Shown here: piece after piece, positions 57,425 to 63,541 of the stretch | How the letters are laid out: every line of letters begins with the position of its first letter | Numbering within the stretch: the first letter of the stretch is position 1 | Origin: Escherichia coli | GTDB lineage: Bacteria > Pseudomonadota > Gammaproteobacteria > Enterobacterales > Enterobacteriaceae | Assembly (NCBI RefSeq): GCF_013122565.1 | Contig: NZ_CP053258.1 | Direction: 5' to 3' (one strand) | DNA: 64,000 nt | Made by a program: the position numbers and the translations under genes | The notes under the pieces: generated by a model | What the model saw: only the letters and a program-made list of their open reading frames with translations | The model's database searches: none | Told to the model about the DNA's origin: nothing

Positions 57425-58557
57425 GACTGAAGATTCTCCGCAAGCCATGATGCCAGCTCGCCCGGTGTCATGGCGGCTATTTGTGCGCCGATATTAACCA
57501 GCGCCTGGGCCGTATCGTGGTCATAGCAGGGTGTTGCGTTGCTATCGAGCGCCGCCAGTCCCAGCACTTTGATGCCGCTCTGGACACACTTTTTCACCTG
57601 ATGCGTCAGCAATGATGATGAACCCCCTTCGTAAAAATCGCTCACGAGGATAATGACGCTTTTTGCTGGTTGTTCAATAAGTTGCCGACCATACTCCACG
57701 GCACTGGCGATATTGGTCCCGCCACCCAACTGTACTTTCATTAATAACTCTACCGGATCGGCAACGTCTGCCGTGAGATCAACGACGCTTGTGTCAAACG
57801 CCACCAGATGGGTACGAATGCCGGGTAACTGCCACAAACAGGCCGCCATCACCGCAGAGTGGATCACCGAATCGACCATCGAGCCGCTTTGATCAACCAG
57901 TAAGACCAGTTGCCATTGTTCGCTTTGGCGTTTAATGCGGCTGTTAAAGCGGGGGGATTCGATATACAACTTGCCGTGTTGCGGGTGCCAGTGTTGCAGG
58001 TTGGCGCGCAGAGTACTTTTGAAATCAAAGTTTCGCGCCAGTGGAATAAATGAGCGGCGACGGCGATCGCGGACACCAGAAAAAGCCTGACGAACCTCCT
58101 TTGCCAGTTGTGCCATAATTTCTTCCACAACCTGGCGCACTATCCGGCGGGCGGCAGCCAGTACTTCGGGATTCATCAGATGTTTGGTGTGCAAAACGGC
58201 GCGTAGCAGGCTTTCAGAAGGCTGCATACGTTCCAGCACGTCGAGATTTGTCACCACATCTTCAATGCCGTAGCGCAGTACGGCATCGCTTTCCAGCCGC
58301 TCAATCACCTGTTGCGGAAACAGCGTGTGAATACTGTTGATCCACTCAGGAGTGGTGAGATTTGAGCCACCTAATCCACCGGAGCGTTCACCACGCTGGA
58401 GCCGTTCAGGATCGCGCCCATACAGCCACTCCAGCGCGTGGTCTATCTGCCGGGCGTTGTCATCCAGCCCACAAAGCGTCGTTTCTGCCGCTTCGCCAAG
58501 AATTAATCGCCAGCGTTGTAGTTCACGGGTGGTCAGAAGATCGTTCAGTTCAGACAT
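57421..58557 (-). CDS. yehP: von Willebrand factor A (VWA) domain protein YehP
   Basis: ORF-track 57421..58785; internal ATG at 58557 gives 378-aa MSELNDLLTTRELQRW...; MIDAS motif LVLLVDQSGSM. Confidence 0.88.
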   Translation of the reverse strand: MSELNDLLTTRELQRWRLILGEAAETTLCGLDDNARQIDHALEWLYGRDPERLQRGERSGGLGGSNLTTPEWINSIHTLFPQQVIERLESDAVLRYGIEDVVTNLDVLERMQPSESLLRAVLHTKHLMNPEVLAAARRIVRQVVEEIMAQLAKEVRQAFSGVRDRRRRSFIPLARNFDFKSTLRANLQHWHPQHGKLYIESPRFNSRIKRQSEQWQLVLLVDQSGSMVDSVIHSAVMAACLWQLPGIRTHLVAFDTSVVDLTADVADPVELLMKVQLGGGTNIASAVEYGRQLIEQPAKSVIILVSDFYEGGSSSLLTHQVKKCVQSGIKVLGLAALDSNATPCYDHDTAQALVNIGAQIAAMTPGELASWLAENLQS

Positions 58558-60829
58558 GGAAAACTCCCCAGTGTTGCAGCGATGCCAGTGCCTGCTGTTC
58601 GAGTTGTTGATGATGTGCAATGGCTTGTGGTGGACAATGCAACGGCATTTGCAGAGCCGAAACGGGAAGTTGCGCCAGTTGATAATGTTCAAGCACCTGA
58701 TGCGCCAGCGTCCCGCGTTCTCGTGGCGGTAGCCAGGCCATCGCCGCGCGTAAATCGGGCAGGGCATTGATAAAATCGGCATCACTTAGTTGATTTAAAT
58801 GACTGCTGAAACCGGCGATAAATGCCGGCTGACAAGCCAGTTGATGACGGGCTAATGCCAGCAAACCGTGCAGCGCCTCGCCGGATTGGGCCGGGGATAA
58901 CTGCGTCAGCATTGTCAGCGCCGCTTCGGCACTAGCGTTGGGATGTTCCAGACGCATCAGTGCGCCAAGAGTCGCGCCGCGATCCAGCGCCGGGGCATGA
59001 ATCGCCTGACTGCGGCGCTCCAGTAAGGCTACCGCCGCAGAAAGCGAAACGCCGGATAAGTTAACGCCGCTATGTAGATCGCGCAGGATATGGCAAAGCG
59101 CTTGCCAGCTATGCAGGTGAGCGTGAAACTCCTTTTCATCCGGTCTGCCGTTGGATTCACACAGCCACAGCGTGCGATCGATAGCCGCGCATAACGTCGT
59201 TTGTAATATCTGCGCGCCTTGCATACCGCTAATTTCATCCAGCCGCCATAAGGCATATAGCACTTCCAGCGCCTGGCCCATTTCGGCAAATTGATTTTCC
59301 TGGGCGATTAATAATGTGAGTTGTTCCAGTAATTGCTCACTAAAGCTCGCCAGGCCCGCTAACGCCGCCTGGCTAAGACATGCGGTAATGCTGCCGATTC
59401 CACCCGCGTCCAGCATATCGGCTTCTAATTTATTGCGTGCGGCTTCCTGGAGTGTTGCACCAAAGCAGGCGGCCTCAATCAATGCCGCATGCTGGCTAAG
59501 CGGGCGGGTTAATTTCCAGCGTTCTTCACCGTTGCCTGCAAGTGTCAGTGTACTTCCCTGCTGGCGTACAATCCCTGGGATCTCCAGTATTGCCAGCCGA
59601 TGTAACACCTGACTTTGCGCTAGTCCATTGGGGTTAAAGCGATTTAAGGTAAGCTGCGCCGGAAGAGAGATTCCGGTACGTTCCAGTTCGCAGGTGACAT
59701 CTTTTGGCAGAGGCGGTTGTGGCGTGGAGGGGGCAAGTTTACCGAATCCGTCACCCGCTAATGTGTCTATCAACGTTAGCAGAATCGGATCGGTATCGGG
59801 ATGAATAACTCCGCGATAGCTCCACGGCAACGGCGCGTTCAAGGCTTCTTTAATCAGCGAGCCTGCTATGGCATCCAGCCAGTCAGTGCGTAACGGTAGT
59901 GTATGACCGCGCAACTGTGCCAGCGCCATCACATGCAGATGAGCGGCAGCCATATCAGCGGTAGAAGCGGGCAATTTGTGCTGGCGCAAACGGGCAAGGA
60001 TAGTTTTTAGCAGTTGTTCACCGGCCTGCTGTAAGCCCCACTGCCAGCACCAGTTTTGCCAGACCGGGGCAGGCATACCGGAAAGGTATCCAGCCAGCAC
60101 ATCAAGGCGCTTTTCACTGTAGGGGGTGAGATAACAACCTGTAACGGCATCTGCCAGCGACGGCAATTCTGGCGTGTTAATTTCCTGCGGACATTCGCGC
60201 CACATTTTTGCCAGTGCCGGAGCGTGCCAGCCACCGCAGACAACTAACACGTCGCCATTATTTTGCTGCATCGCCCATCCAATCCAGCGGGCCATAAAGG
60301 CTTCGCGCTGACGATTGAGTGCATCGCCGAGGAAATCGCCCCGCAGTTGGGCAAAATAGTGCGCCAGTGCAGAGGGTAATGCAGTTCGCTGGCTTTCATC
60401 TTCGAACAAGTGATCCCACAGGGTATCGCTGTTATCCATGCGGGTGGCACGCAGCAGCAAGGTCTGGCTTTCCTCTTGCGTATCAGGCGAATCGTCCTCT
60501 TCTTCACTCTGTGCCCAGCAAGGCAAATCGATGAAGTAAGTTTGTGCCTGAATACGACGAGCGGCTTGTAGCGCCTGCCACTCCGGCGAAAATTCAGCAA
60601 ATGGCGTCCAGGCACCACGCCCGGGGGCTGCACCGTCCTGATACTGGCAATAACTGTAAATAGCTACCGGAAGCTGGTGGGCTAAAAACAGTTCGTCTAC
60701 CCGGTCATTAAAATCAGCCGGGCCTTCAATCAACACGTATCGTGGCCGCTGGCTTTCGATTAACGATTTCACCAGCCGGGCGCAGGCCGGACTATGATGC
60801 CGGATGCCGACAATTAACAGCTCGCTCAT
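58550..60829 (-). CDS. yehM: Large uncharacterised protein YehM
   Basis: ORF-track 58550..60997; internal ATG at 60829 gives 759-aa MSELLIVGIRHHSPACARLV... Confidence 0.85.
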   Translation of the reverse strand: MSELLIVGIRHHSPACARLVKSLIESQRPRYVLIEGPADFNDRVDELFLAHQLPVAIYSYCQYQDGAAPGRGAWTPFAEFSPEWQALQAARRIQAQTYFIDLPCWAQSEEEDDSPDTQEESQTLLLRATRMDNSDTLWDHLFEDESQRTALPSALAHYFAQLRGDFLGDALNRQREAFMARWIGWAMQQNNGDVLVVCGGWHAPALAKMWRECPQEINTPELPSLADAVTGCYLTPYSEKRLDVLAGYLSGMPAPVWQNWCWQWGLQQAGEQLLKTILARLRQHKLPASTADMAAAHLHVMALAQLRGHTLPLRTDWLDAIAGSLIKEALNAPLPWSYRGVIHPDTDPILLTLIDTLAGDGFGKLAPSTPQPPLPKDVTCELERTGISLPAQLTLNRFNPNGLAQSQVLHRLAILEIPGIVRQQGSTLTLAGNGEERWKLTRPLSQHAALIEAACFGATLQEAARNKLEADMLDAGGIGSITACLSQAALAGLASFSEQLLEQLTLLIAQENQFAEMGQALEVLYALWRLDEISGMQGAQILQTTLCAAIDRTLWLCESNGRPDEKEFHAHLHSWQALCHILRDLHSGVNLSGVSLSAAVALLERRSQAIHAPALDRGATLGALMRLEHPNASAEAALTMLTQLSPAQSGEALHGLLALARHQLACQPAFIAGFSSHLNQLSDADFINALPDLRAAMAWLPPRERGTLAHQVLEHYQLAQLPVSALQMPLHCPPQAIAHHQQLEQQALASLQHWGVFHV

Positions 60830-60839
60830 GCATCTTTCC

Positions 60840-61928
60840 TCACGGCAGGCGGTGGCGGGCTTGATAATAAGCCTGCCAGTGAGCTTCTTTATGTGTGGCG
60901 ACTCGCTGTTCGAAGTAACGGCGCAGACGAGCGCGATCTTCTTCGTTATCTTTGACGATGGTTCCGGCAATACAGTCCACCAGATCGGCTGGCTCACCTG
61001 CGCGATTCGCTAAAAACCAGGCGCGGACGCCCACAGCGTGGGCCACGTTCACGGCTTCAGCGGTGGACATAATCGCTGTTAGTGTATCCATTGACGTTTT
61101 CTTTTCGCCGTTGGCACGCAGATCGCGGAAGGTGCGGACCAGTAACTCCAGTACCGCGTCAGGCACTTTATGCGGAATACCGCTATGGGCCAGCAAACGC
61201 GCCGAAGCACTGGCGACCAGTTCCAGCTCCTGAGCGAAATCCATAATCGGAAAGACAGTTTCAAAATCGAAGCGACGCTTTAGCGCAGCACTCATCTCAT
61301 TGACGCCGCGATCGCGCGTATTGGCAGTGGCAATAATATTAAAGCCTTCCCGCGCATAGAGTTGACTGGCTTCACCAGTGAGTTCCGGCACCGTCATCAC
61401 CCTGTCAGAAAGCATACCTAACAGACAGTCTTGCACTTCCAGCGGTGTACGCGTTATCTCTTCAAAACGGACGATTTTGCCGTCGCGCATTCCCTGGTAA
61501 AGCGGGGCAGGGACCAGCGCTTCCGTTGATGGACCATGATTGATAAGCAGAGCGTAGTTCCAGCCGTACTTGATTTGATCTTCAGTGGTAGATGCGCCGC
61601 CCTGGATGGTTAACCCGGCATCGCCGCTAATAGCGGTTGCCAGTAATTCAGACAGGAGAGATTTTGCGGTGCCCGGTTCCCCCACCAACATCAAACCGCG
61701 CCCGGTGGCAAGAGTGACTAACATACGTTCGACAGCAGAGGGACTAATCACGACTTTACGGCTAATATTTTGCGCGCTATCGCCAAGGATAAAAGCACGT
61801 GCCGCAGGCAAACTTAACTGCCAACCGGGCGGGCAAGGTGCGTTATCATTTTGTTTTAATTTTGCCAGTTCATCGGCGTATAACACAGCGGCAGGCGGAC
61901 GCTGCAGATGATTATTCTGCGGTGACAT
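60840..61928 (-). CDS. yehL: MoxR-like AAA+ ATPase YehL
   Basis: ORF-track 60840..61994; internal ATG at 61928 gives 362-aa MSPQNNHLQRPPAAVLYADEL...; Walker A GEPGTAKS. Confidence 0.88.
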   Translation of the reverse strand: MSPQNNHLQRPPAAVLYADELAKLKQNDNAPCPPGWQLSLPAARAFILGDSAQNISRKVVISPSAVERMLVTLATGRGLMLVGEPGTAKSLLSELLATAISGDAGLTIQGGASTTEDQIKYGWNYALLINHGPSTEALVPAPLYQGMRDGKIVRFEEITRTPLEVQDCLLGMLSDRVMTVPELTGEASQLYAREGFNIIATANTRDRGVNEMSAALKRRFDFETVFPIMDFAQELELVASASARLLAHSGIPHKVPDAVLELLVRTFRDLRANGEKKTSMDTLTAIMSTAEAVNVAHAVGVRAWFLANRAGEPADLVDCIAGTIVKDNEEDRARLRRYFEQRVATHKEAHWQAYYQARHRLP

Positions 61929-62037
61929 ATATTCATCCCTGAAATGTATTAATGAAATAAACGATATTTTACGCGCAATAAATGTTTGGTGCATTAGTTG
62001 TTTGAGCGAAAAATATCTGGAAAGCAGATCACAGTAA

Positions 62038-62120
62038 ATAAAAAAACCTGCTGGTGAGGCAGGTTCTTTTATTTACTACAGTGACGCTAACTTGCTGATT
62101 GTGCAACATTTCGTACCAAC
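62038..62120 (-). ncRNA. orzO: OrzO-like type I antitoxin sRNA (about 83 nt)
   Basis: Minus-strand promoter (-35 TTGCAA at 62150-55, 17-bp spacer, -10 TATAAT as reverse complement of 62127-32); 5' region complementary to the zorO 5' UTR; ends at hairpin aacctgc-tggtgag-gcaggtt (62045-62065) followed on the minus strand by TTTTTTT. Confidence 0.7.
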
Positions 62121-62126
62121 GAATAA

Positions 62127-62177
62127 ATTATAACCATATCCACACTCCATTGCAATTCAGTGAGTGAGATTTATAAT
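62127..62177. promoter_or_regulatory. Overlapping divergent promoters of orzO (-) and zorO (+) sharing one -35 hexamer
   Basis: Palindromic TTGCAA (62150-55) serves as -35 for +strand -10 TATAAT (62172-77, 16-bp spacer) and -strand -10 TATAAT (62127-32, 17-bp spacer). Confidence 0.65.
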
Positions 62178-62358
62178 CCTGCCCGTTGGGAGGTTGTGCC
62201 GGATCGGACCAATTTTAAGTCCTGGCTGCCGGACGGGTGGTGCCGCAGGCGGTGCCCTGATCCGGAGAGCAACGTTTCGTACCAACATACGTAAACCAGT
62301 ATCGACAGGCAGTGTAAGGGTAAGGTGCTGGTGTTGCGCTCCTTAATAAGGAGAGCGG

Positions 62359-62448
62359 ATGGACACGCTGACACAAAAGTTAACCGTGCTCATTGCCGTA
62401 CTGGAGTTATTAGTGGCTCTGTTACGGTTGATTGATTTGTTGAAGTAA
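62359..62448 (+). CDS. zorO: Type I toxin ZorO (29-aa hydrophobic peptide)
   Basis: Hand translation MDTLTQKLTVLIAVLELLVALLRLIDLLK*; strong SD aaggag 5 nt upstream; about 174-nt 5' UTR from the predicted TSS; matches my recollection of ZorO from E. coli O157:H7. Confidence 0.85.
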   Translation: MDTLTQKLTVLIAVLELLVALLRLIDLLK

Positions 62449-62469: not shown

Positions 62470-62496
62470 AAGGGGGAATACCGTTTCCCCCTTTAA
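62470..62496 (+). terminator. Terminator hairpin after zorO
   Basis: Stem aagggggaa / ttccccctt with 6-nt loop, short T tail. Confidence 0.55.
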
Positions 62497-62645
62497 TAAA
62501 ATGATTACATCTTCCATTAATTCACCCGATAACTTTTTTCATATTTATAAATTCATCGATTTTATAATCAACGTACTATTTGGCCGGGATGTGAATAATC
62601 ATGGTGGGCTATTGGCGAAAAATATCTGGAAAGTAGATCGCAGAA

Positions 62646-62729
62646 AATAAAAGAACCTGCTGGTGAGGCAGGTTCTTTTATTTACTACTTTGATGTTAAG
62701 TTACTGATAGTGCAACATGGCATCTCAAC
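62646..62729 (-). ncRNA. orzP: OrzP-like type I antitoxin sRNA
   Basis: Same architecture as orzO: -35 TTGCAA 62759-64, -10 reverse complement of 62736-41, hairpin 62654-62674 plus T-run on the minus strand. Confidence 0.65.
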
Positions 62730-62735
62730 GAACGA

Positions 62736-62786
62736 ATTATAACCACCTCGGGGCCGTGTTGCAATTAAGATAATGAGATTTATAAT
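62736..62786. promoter_or_regulatory. Overlapping divergent promoters of orzP (-) and zorP (+)
   Basis: Shared TTGCAA (62759-64); +strand TATAAT 62781-86; -strand TATAAT reverse complement of 62736-41. Confidence 0.6.
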
Positions 62787-62967
62787 CCTGACTGTTGGGA
62801 AGTTGCGCCGGATCGAACCCATTTCAAGTCCTGGCTACCGGACGGGTGGTGCCGCAGGTAGTGCTCTGATCCGGAGTGCAACATGGCGACTCAACATACG
62901 TAAACCAGTATCGACAGGCAGTGTAAGGGTAAGGTGCTGGTGTTGCGCTCCTTAATAAGGAGAGCGG

Positions 62968-63057
62968 ATGGACACGCTGACAAAAAAGTTAACCGTGCTC
63001 ATTGCCGTACTGGAGTTATTAGTGGCTCTGTTACGGTTGATTGATTTGTTGAAGTAA
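62968..63057 (+). CDS. zorP: Type I toxin ZorP (29 aa; one substitution, Q6K, relative to the upstream copy)
   Basis: Hand translation MDTLTKKLTVLIAVLELLVALLRLIDLLK*; identical SD and context to zorO. Confidence 0.85.
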   Translation: MDTLTKKLTVLIAVLELLVALLRLIDLLK

Positions 63058-63078
63058 CGGGCAAATTGAAACGCATCT

Positions 63079-63105
63079 AAGGGGGAATACCGTTTCCCCC
63101 TTTAA
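63079..63105 (+). terminator. Terminator hairpin after zorP
   Basis: Same aagggggaa / ttccccctt hairpin as after zorO. Confidence 0.55.
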
Positions 63106-63110
63106 TAAAG

Positions 63111-63238
63111 CTATACTCGTCATACTTCAAGTTGCATGTGCTGCGACTGCGTTCGTTCACCCCGGTCACTTACTTTAGTAAGCTCCTGGGAATTCACTCG
63201 CTTATCGCCTTCCTGCAACTTGAATTATTTAGAGTATA
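63111..63238. repeat. ERIC (IRU) enterobacterial repetitive intergenic consensus element
   Basis: Reverse complement of 63150-63198 reads gtgaattcccaggagcttactaaagtaagtgaccggggtgaacgaac, matching the ERIC core GTGAATCCCCAGGAGCTTACATAAGTAAGTGACTGGGGTGAGCG; terminal inverted repeats ctatactcgtcatacttcaagttgca / tgcaacttgaat...agagtata. Confidence 0.85.
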
Positions 63239-63541
63239 TTATTCTATTTCTTGGTTGAATATATTCTGTAGTTCGCGATTAAAAATTGCTATTACCGTTT
63301 CAGGTGATTCACCTCGTAATTTCCGCTCATCAATACACTCATCTCTTATATAAATCAACGCATCATTTATTTGCGGGTCGGCATCATTAAATGTTGGATG
63401 TAGCCGGAATCGCTCCAGCCGGTAGACGGAACCTGTAAATAATTCAGAGCATTTATGGATCTCAAGTCTGAAGGAAAACGGATCTTCAGGTACAGGGACC
63501 TCATAATCGTAAATAGCAACCAGCTCTTTTTGCACGATCAT
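63239..63541 (-). CDS. yehK: Small uncharacterised protein (YehK-like)
   Basis: 100-aa ORF MIVQKELVAIYDYEVPVPEDPF...; the position between yehI and yehL corresponds to yehK in K-12; identity by synteny only. Confidence 0.5.
   Translation of the reverse strand: MIVQKELVAIYDYEVPVPEDPFSFRLEIHKCSELFTGSVYRLERFRLHPTFNDADPQINDALIYIRDECIDERKLRGESPETVIAIFNRELQNIFNQEIE

Follow-up and report, generated by a model that had tools for sequence, protein, structure and literature searches.

The hairpin at 62045–62065 of the window (the entire 64,000-nt stretch of Escherichia coli contig NZ_CP053258.1 analyzed here) is very probably the terminator and 3′ stability stem of an OrzO-type small RNA (sRNA), an element that insulates the yehLMPQ operon rather than coupling it to the toxin–antitoxin (TA) locus beside it. 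In the proposed mechanism, a near-consensus promoter (62155–62127) would drive an OrzO-type type I antitoxin sRNA of ~82 nt from the minus strand, and RNA polymerase would stop in the U7 tract at ~62039–62040 by Rho-independent termination; the terminator would therefore shield the co-directional, H-NS-silenced yehLMPQ from the strongly expressed orz promoter. The plus-strand T-run would be the other arm of the extended A-tract/U-tract stem of the sRNA, with nothing obvious to terminate at this yehL-proximal copy. The insulation view is based on the sequence, fold, Rfam membership, conservation, and geometry presented below, and the position of the 3′ end and the near-zero local read-through come from the literature on the K-12 orthologue. 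The hairpin is real but ordinary, being already known as the stem of a curated Rfam family, as the site of an EcoCyc orzP entry, and from mapped 3′ ends in K-12.

The orz Gene and Its Terminator

Rfam family RF02083 (OrzO-P antitoxin) matches positions 62040–62113 on the minus strand over the full model (1–76) with 88.8 bits (gathering score 60), and the hairpin corresponds to the terminal 12-bp stem plus U-tail of that model. This agrees with the initial annotation, which had the hairpin ending the Orz sRNA on the minus strand about 110 nt before the yehL ATG: K-12 mapping places the 3′ end at the equivalent of window position 62039, 111 nt upstream of 61928. Both orz copies in the window score at least 60 bits on the strand divergent from zor. 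The 5′ end of Orz was placed from the location of the −10 hexamer and is to that extent putative; the TTGCAA/TATAAT hexamers are at least 99% conserved in E. coli (PMC11264685). The coordinates of all features are collected in table 1.

Table 1. Features of the yehL–yehK intergenic region, in window coordinates
Feature	Position	Strand	Basis
yehL start codon (ATG)	61926–61928	−	ORF list; RefSeq yehL in aligned K-12, O157, and other loci
Spacer, Orz 3′ end to yehL ATG	61929–62038	−	Nearly invariant in 10 genomes
Extended palindrome	62033–62077	Both	Inverted-repeat search; fold; Rfam consensus pairing (12 bp)
Orz U-tract and 3′ end (UUUUUUU, then A)	62039–62046	−	Sequence; K-12 Term-seq and TRS terminus
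orzO-type antitoxin sRNA gene, ~82 nt	62039–62120	−	RF02083; promoter; duplex prediction; 99.2% O157 identity
Core hairpin AACCTGC-TGGTGAG-GCAGGTT	62045–62065	Both	Sequence; fold; 17-nt core CCTGCTGGTGAGGCAGG
orz promoter TTGCAA-17-TATAAT, 10/12 matches	62127–62155	−	Promoter scan
zorO promoter TTGCAA-16-TATAAT, −35 region common with divergent orz	62150–62177	+	Promoter scan
Orz pairing site in zorO 5′ UTR, GCAACGTTTCGTACCAAC	62269–62286	+	Sequence; duplex prediction
zorO toxin ORF, 29 aa, MDTLTQKLTVLIAVLELLVALLRLIDLLK	62359–62448	+	ORF list
zorO terminator hairpin AAGGGGGAATACCGTTTCCCCCTT, convergent with second orz	62470–62493	+	−15.3 kcal/mol, z −3.5; inverted repeat
Second palindrome/terminator (hairpin 62654–62674), orz-strand U-tract UUCUUUUAUUUU	62642–62686	Both	Rfam; fold; repeats
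Second orz sRNA gene, third pairing-specificity variant	62648–62729	−	RF02083 at 62649–62722, 90.2 bits
Second zor toxin ORF, 29 aa, Q6K (MDTLTKKLTV...)	62968–63057	+	ORF list

A direct check of the sequence returned the annotated hairpin exactly, and the T-runs described on either side of it were also borne out, the A and T tracts being symmetric. Read on the minus strand, the hairpin region is GCAGGTTTTTTTATTTAC and continues past the stem as TTTTTTTATTTAC. The seven T of this strand occupy 62046–62040, of which 62046, together with 62045, had already been counted as a stem base; five T come after the stem as drawn, with A and TTT behind them. On the plus strand, CTTTTATTTAC follows the stem.

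The hairpin is the center of a larger palindrome, whose 19-nt arms (62033–62051 and 62059–62077) are 95% complementary around a 7-nt loop. With one arm rich in A and the other in T, the palindrome gives the sRNA a long 3′ stem and looks like a terminator on either strand. The core stem alone is modest (7 bp, −8.5 kcal/mol), but it extends to 12–19 bp and is directly abutted by U7, as in an intrinsic terminator. The fold of a 91-nt minus-strand segment has an energy of −31.7 kcal/mol (z −5.1), a value equalled by none of 200 shuffles.

Ten Escherichia genomes supplied 15 orz copies for comparison; all of them have the same hairpin core, CCTGCTGGTGAGGCAGG, and 14 have the A7 tract, the exception being the internal copy of the window. 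The quality of the U-tract did not differ between yehL-proximal and internal copies (U7 in 14/15 overall). A simple terminator scan flagged the hairpin on the plus strand only and found one site against 2.1 expected from shuffles; it was not relied on because it returned fewer sites than shuffles and missed the minus strand, probably through a G–T-tolerant stem extension that swallows the T-run. A d'Aubenton-Carafa-style score computed with modern energies, which serves as a relative ranking rather than calibrated evidence, was positive for this copy on the minus strand only.

Tandem zor–orz Modules

The window holds two tandem zor–orz type I TA modules with a start-to-start spacing of 609 nt. 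Each has an orz promoter on the minus strand (TTGCAA-17-TATAAT), a divergent zor promoter on the plus strand (TTGCAA-16-TATAAT), a 29-aa hydrophobic toxin ORF divergent from orz, and a zor terminator hairpin. The first 18 nt of Orz (62103–62120) are complementary to 62269–62286 over 18 nt with one G–U pair, and the predicted duplexes discriminate between the copies: −40.8 kcal/mol for the zorO UTR with its cognate versus −23.5 kcal/mol with the other Orz, and −41.0 versus −31.1 kcal/mol for the second module. In the window, the ~18 nt by which the 5′ end of Orz complements the 5′ UTR of its cognate zor thus discriminate between copies, and an 18-nt copy-specific pairing region was described for Orz in EDL933, where toxicity of ZorO and rescue by OrzO were demonstrated (PMC3919570).

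The modules share with OrzO/OrzP of O157:H7 EDL933 and with the orphan orzP of K-12 the RF02083 family, the same terminator hairpin, and the site between yehL and yehK. Also as in O157:H7, there is a divergent promoter pair and a 29-aa toxin, and the yehL-adjacent module is 99.2% identical to zorO–orzO. The name orzO given in the initial annotation fits by sequence type, but not by the position that orzO holds in the O157:H7 genome compared: in strain Z1832 the zorO–orzO module lies next to yehK and an orzP type lies next to yehL. K-12 likewise has the orzP type beside yehL, unlike the window, which has the orzO type there, as does E. coli N3. ZorP differs from ZorO by T3S (PMC11264685); the ORF at 62359–62448 has T3 and the yehL-proximal ORF of O157 has S3. 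IstR-1/tisB and OhsC/shoB are comparable in that a short, divergently transcribed antitoxin sRNA uses its 5′ end to pair with the long 5′ UTR of the toxin, but belong to other sequence families at other loci. The second orz copy gave a weak match to the Rfam ohsC_RNA family (35.4 bits), which does not make it a member because the score is under the gathering threshold of 50.

A variant with a specificity of its own, the second module (62612–63109) is ~90.5% identical to O157 zorP–orzP and differs from the O157 modules in its Q6K toxin, its pairing region (orz, GCAACATGGCATCTCAAC; zor UTR, GCAACATGGCGACTCAAC), and its Orz U-tract, which is interrupted (UUCUUUUAUUUU) unlike those of the other 14 of the 15 copies. 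E. coli N3 and LD91-1 also have an internal copy that is identical to it in the orz-proximal sequence. The duplicated module begins at 62006, ~35 nt past the Orz 3′ end, so that the segment 62006–62038 recurs at 62615–62647; this post-terminator segment holds the weak promoter-like TTTACT-17-TATTTT, directed toward yehL at the first copy and antisense toward the 3′ end of zorO at the second. The inter-module spacer (62498–62614) was also considered as a diverged yehL upstream spacer and rejected, as 158 of 500 shuffles attained its local alignment score of 11.

Between the second zor terminator and yehK lies an ERIC-like repeat (63112–63238) with 25-nt inverted arms that are 84% complementary; a match to Rfam V_AS5 in this repeat is below threshold (40.2 bits vs. 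a gathering score of 96). In K-12, the orz-only deletion has its junction between the zor 5′ UTR (~62215) and the repeat's right end (~63216).

Distribution across Escherichia

The locus had been described as an acquired TA system beside a core operon, a view that the distribution contradicts. Of 5426 complete E. coli genomes, 5231 matched a 197-nt query covering the spacer and orz (61929–62125) and 5334 matched yehLM. At 98% identity or more, most of the 5231 matches span the first 150 nt, and an O-like orz body next to yehL is present as well in 911. In a species-representative collection the exact 21-mer hairpin occurred in three Escherichia genomes only (E. whittamii and two other species), adjoining yehL in all three, and no E. 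coli representative matched. An exact 21-mer search is blind to variants, so absence outside Escherichia is weak evidence. K-12 has lost the toxin and retains an intact orphan orzP with its promoter and the same hairpin, and orz-only loci occur in ~30% of E. coli (Shore et al. 2024, PMC11264685). From the near-universal matches, the other Escherichia species, and the K-12 orphan, we infer that the locus is ancestral at this site and approximately as core as yehL, rather than a recent acquisition.

The type of the yehL-adjacent module varies between strains (P in K-12, O157, and LD91-1; O in the window and N3) against a constant hairpin and spacer, and zor–orz copy number ranges from 0.5 to 5 (PMC11264685). 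These patterns, and the start of the duplicated module at 62006 instead of at the terminator, would suit a palindrome that acts with its ~35-nt flank mainly at the DNA level, as a protein-binding site or as a recombination anchor for shuffling or amplifying zor–orz modules, termination being secondary. Such a role is extremely improbable: ordinary homologous recombination between tandem repeats accounts for the module swaps with no need of a special site, the element fits a curated sRNA family whose 3′ end has been mapped experimentally, and no binding protein or recombinase is indicated.

Two further observations were made in the genome comparison. The yehLM region of the window (58000–61900) is at most 98.5% identical to any of the 5426 complete E. 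coli genomes, so that the window derives from an Escherichia lineage with no near-identical member among them. E. coli ECKH-505 has an IS1 element where yehL to yehQ normally sit and keeps the spacer only from ~62004 onward.

Transcript Ends in K-12 and Proposed Read-through into yehLMPQ

Over the stretch that starts at the yehL ATG and takes in U7 and the hairpin, K-12 and the window differ by one spacer base, and K-12 data were transferred to the present strain because of this near identity; termination probably behaves in the same way here. Term-seq of K-12 (Adams et al. 2021) placed a 3′ end at 2204485 (+), −111 from the yehL ATG, with the transcript reading ...GCAGGTTTTTTT and A as the next base. 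A TRS study of K-12 reported a “Primary” terminus at 2204482–2204492, annotated as orzP (EcoCyc G0-17076), with R values of 1.0 and 0.996 (rank 97) in two data sets. As R = L/(L + D), where D gives how many reads start within the 67 nt downstream and R = 1 means no read-through, these values leave at most ~0.4% of the 3′-end signal within the next 67 nt. OrzPmg gives a Northern signal in MG1655 (Shore et al. 2024, PMC11264685). All of these transcript data are from K-12, which has an orzP-type body and no toxin gene, under few laboratory conditions.

In LB at OD 0.4, Adams et al. (2021) reported a K-12 3′ end at 2204446 (+), −150 from yehL and classed as not Rho-dependent; this internal end was the sole call in that condition, the terminator end being absent. 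Position 2204446 corresponds to 62078 of the window, at the 5′ foot of the extended terminator stem. The RNA ending there, perhaps a product of processing, would be an Orz 5′ fragment of ~43 nt that has the pairing region but lacks the terminator. Wen et al. reported no success in detecting alternative forms of OrzO.

The initial annotation proposed that read-through would run into yehLMPQ, so that the TA locus could affect the neighboring operon. Such a leaky terminator would let a useful fraction of orz transcripts enter yehLMPQ, and the TA locus or an orphan orz would set or modulate the operon. The geometry gives this some appeal, as orz and yehL are co-directional and just 111 nt apart, the orz promoter matches consensus at 10/12 positions versus 8/12 for the promoter-like sites of yehL, and the 7-bp core stem is modest; the zor–orz papers of the Fozo laboratory consulted here do not discuss neighboring genes. 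It is nevertheless a very doubtful explanation given the TRS values for K-12, the extension of the stem, and the U7 that abuts it. Moreover, yehL and yehM, cited as example genes beside an “intergenic” H-NS site, are raised only in hns/stpA mutants (PMC3686432), remaining silent otherwise though OrzP is expressed, and DirectRNA-seq coverage of the yehL 5′ region downstream of the terminator is low in K-12 (37 reads per 800 nt). Functional read-through into yehL is thus unlikely on two grounds, the R values of 0.996–1.0 and the H-NS/StpA dependence of yehL and yehM, and the K-12 evidence runs counter to the annotation on this point. The supplements of SMRT-Cappable-seq and TERMITe contained no yehL, yehK, or 22044xx entries.

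The K-12 data are steady-state measurements and therefore under-count unstable read-through RNA, and because the promoter candidates of yehL are very weak, even rare read-through from the strong orz promoter could matter. There is accordingly a very slim prospect that the orz unit has a role in cis at yehL, through conditional read-through or through interference with a weak promoter that overlaps the U-tract (TTTACT-17-TATTTT, 62038–62010). If true, this could explain why toxin-less, intact, and expressed orz persists in ~30% of E. coli and why Escherichia genomes scarcely vary in the hairpin-to-yehL spacer, and it would answer the question of Shore et al. (2024) on the purpose of an orphan type I antitoxin. 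Current evidence is against a cis effect, the K-12 data pointing to insulation of yehLMPQ from orz and not to coupling.

The Hairpin on the Plus Strand

Bidirectional intrinsic terminators between convergent genes were reportedly described genome-wide in E. coli by Ju and colleagues in 2019, using SEnd-seq. The element upstream of yehL resembles these in its GC-rich hairpin with A-tract and T-tract flanks, which present a hairpin plus U-run on both strands (AGTAAATAAAAAAACCTGC and GCAGGTTCTTTTATTTACT, the plus-strand tract being interrupted by C). It differs in its surroundings, as there is no convergent unit at 62045–62065, where yehL lies downstream in the same direction; only the internal copy (62654–62674) lies between convergent genes, with zorO (+) facing orz (−).

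Judged from the symmetric A/T tracts, plus-strand action at the yehL-proximal copy is plausible, as the initial annotation had it. That this palindrome is a true bidirectional terminator, stopping plus-strand transcription that runs antisense to yehL or divergently from the yehL promoter region and so guarding orz from antisense RNA, is nonetheless unlikely. A 56-nt plus-strand segment does fold well (−23.6 kcal/mol, z −5.9; 0/200 shuffles as good), and the terminator scan flags the site on this strand, but the T-tract is broken by C at its third base and at this copy the rough terminator score is positive on the minus strand alone. The plus-strand sequence TTCTTTTATTT is unchanged in all 15 orz copies of the 10 genomes; its conservation needs no plus-strand function because the T-rich arm is the 5′ half of the extended stem of the sRNA, and the T-tract thus belongs to Orz itself. 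A promoter scan found no plus-strand promoter-like site within 61500–62045, and among the matches listed for two K-12 data sets there was no opposite-strand 3′ end at 22044xx. We infer that the plus-strand arm serves the Orz stem.

The internal palindrome could be a different case. It faces zorO and could back up the zorO terminator, which would keep convergent transcription from running antisense through the second orz; the arrangement of the two genes makes this backstop role plausible.

The Spacer and the yehL Start

The spacer leads to yehL, the MoxR-type AAA+ ATPase gene at the head of yehLMPQ, and presumably carries the weak, H-NS-silenced promoter and 5′ UTR of this gene. A promoter scan of the spacer at 9/12 matches or better returned no sites, and a relaxed scan gave two σ70-like candidates, both 8/12: TTTACT-17-TATTTT (62038 to 62010) and TGCACC-16-TAAAAT (61993 to 61966).

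An in-frame ATG at 61994, 22 codons upstream of the annotated yehL start, would extend the ORF to 384 aa (60840–61994). The annotated start at 61928 is likelier because it is preceded by AGGGA and 61994 lacks an obvious Shine–Dalgarno sequence. An inverted repeat of 27 nt (78% complementary) at 61927–61953, over the yehL start, and 63238–63264, at the yehK stop, brackets the yehL–yehK intergenic region; as both arms are AT-rich, it is probably due to chance.
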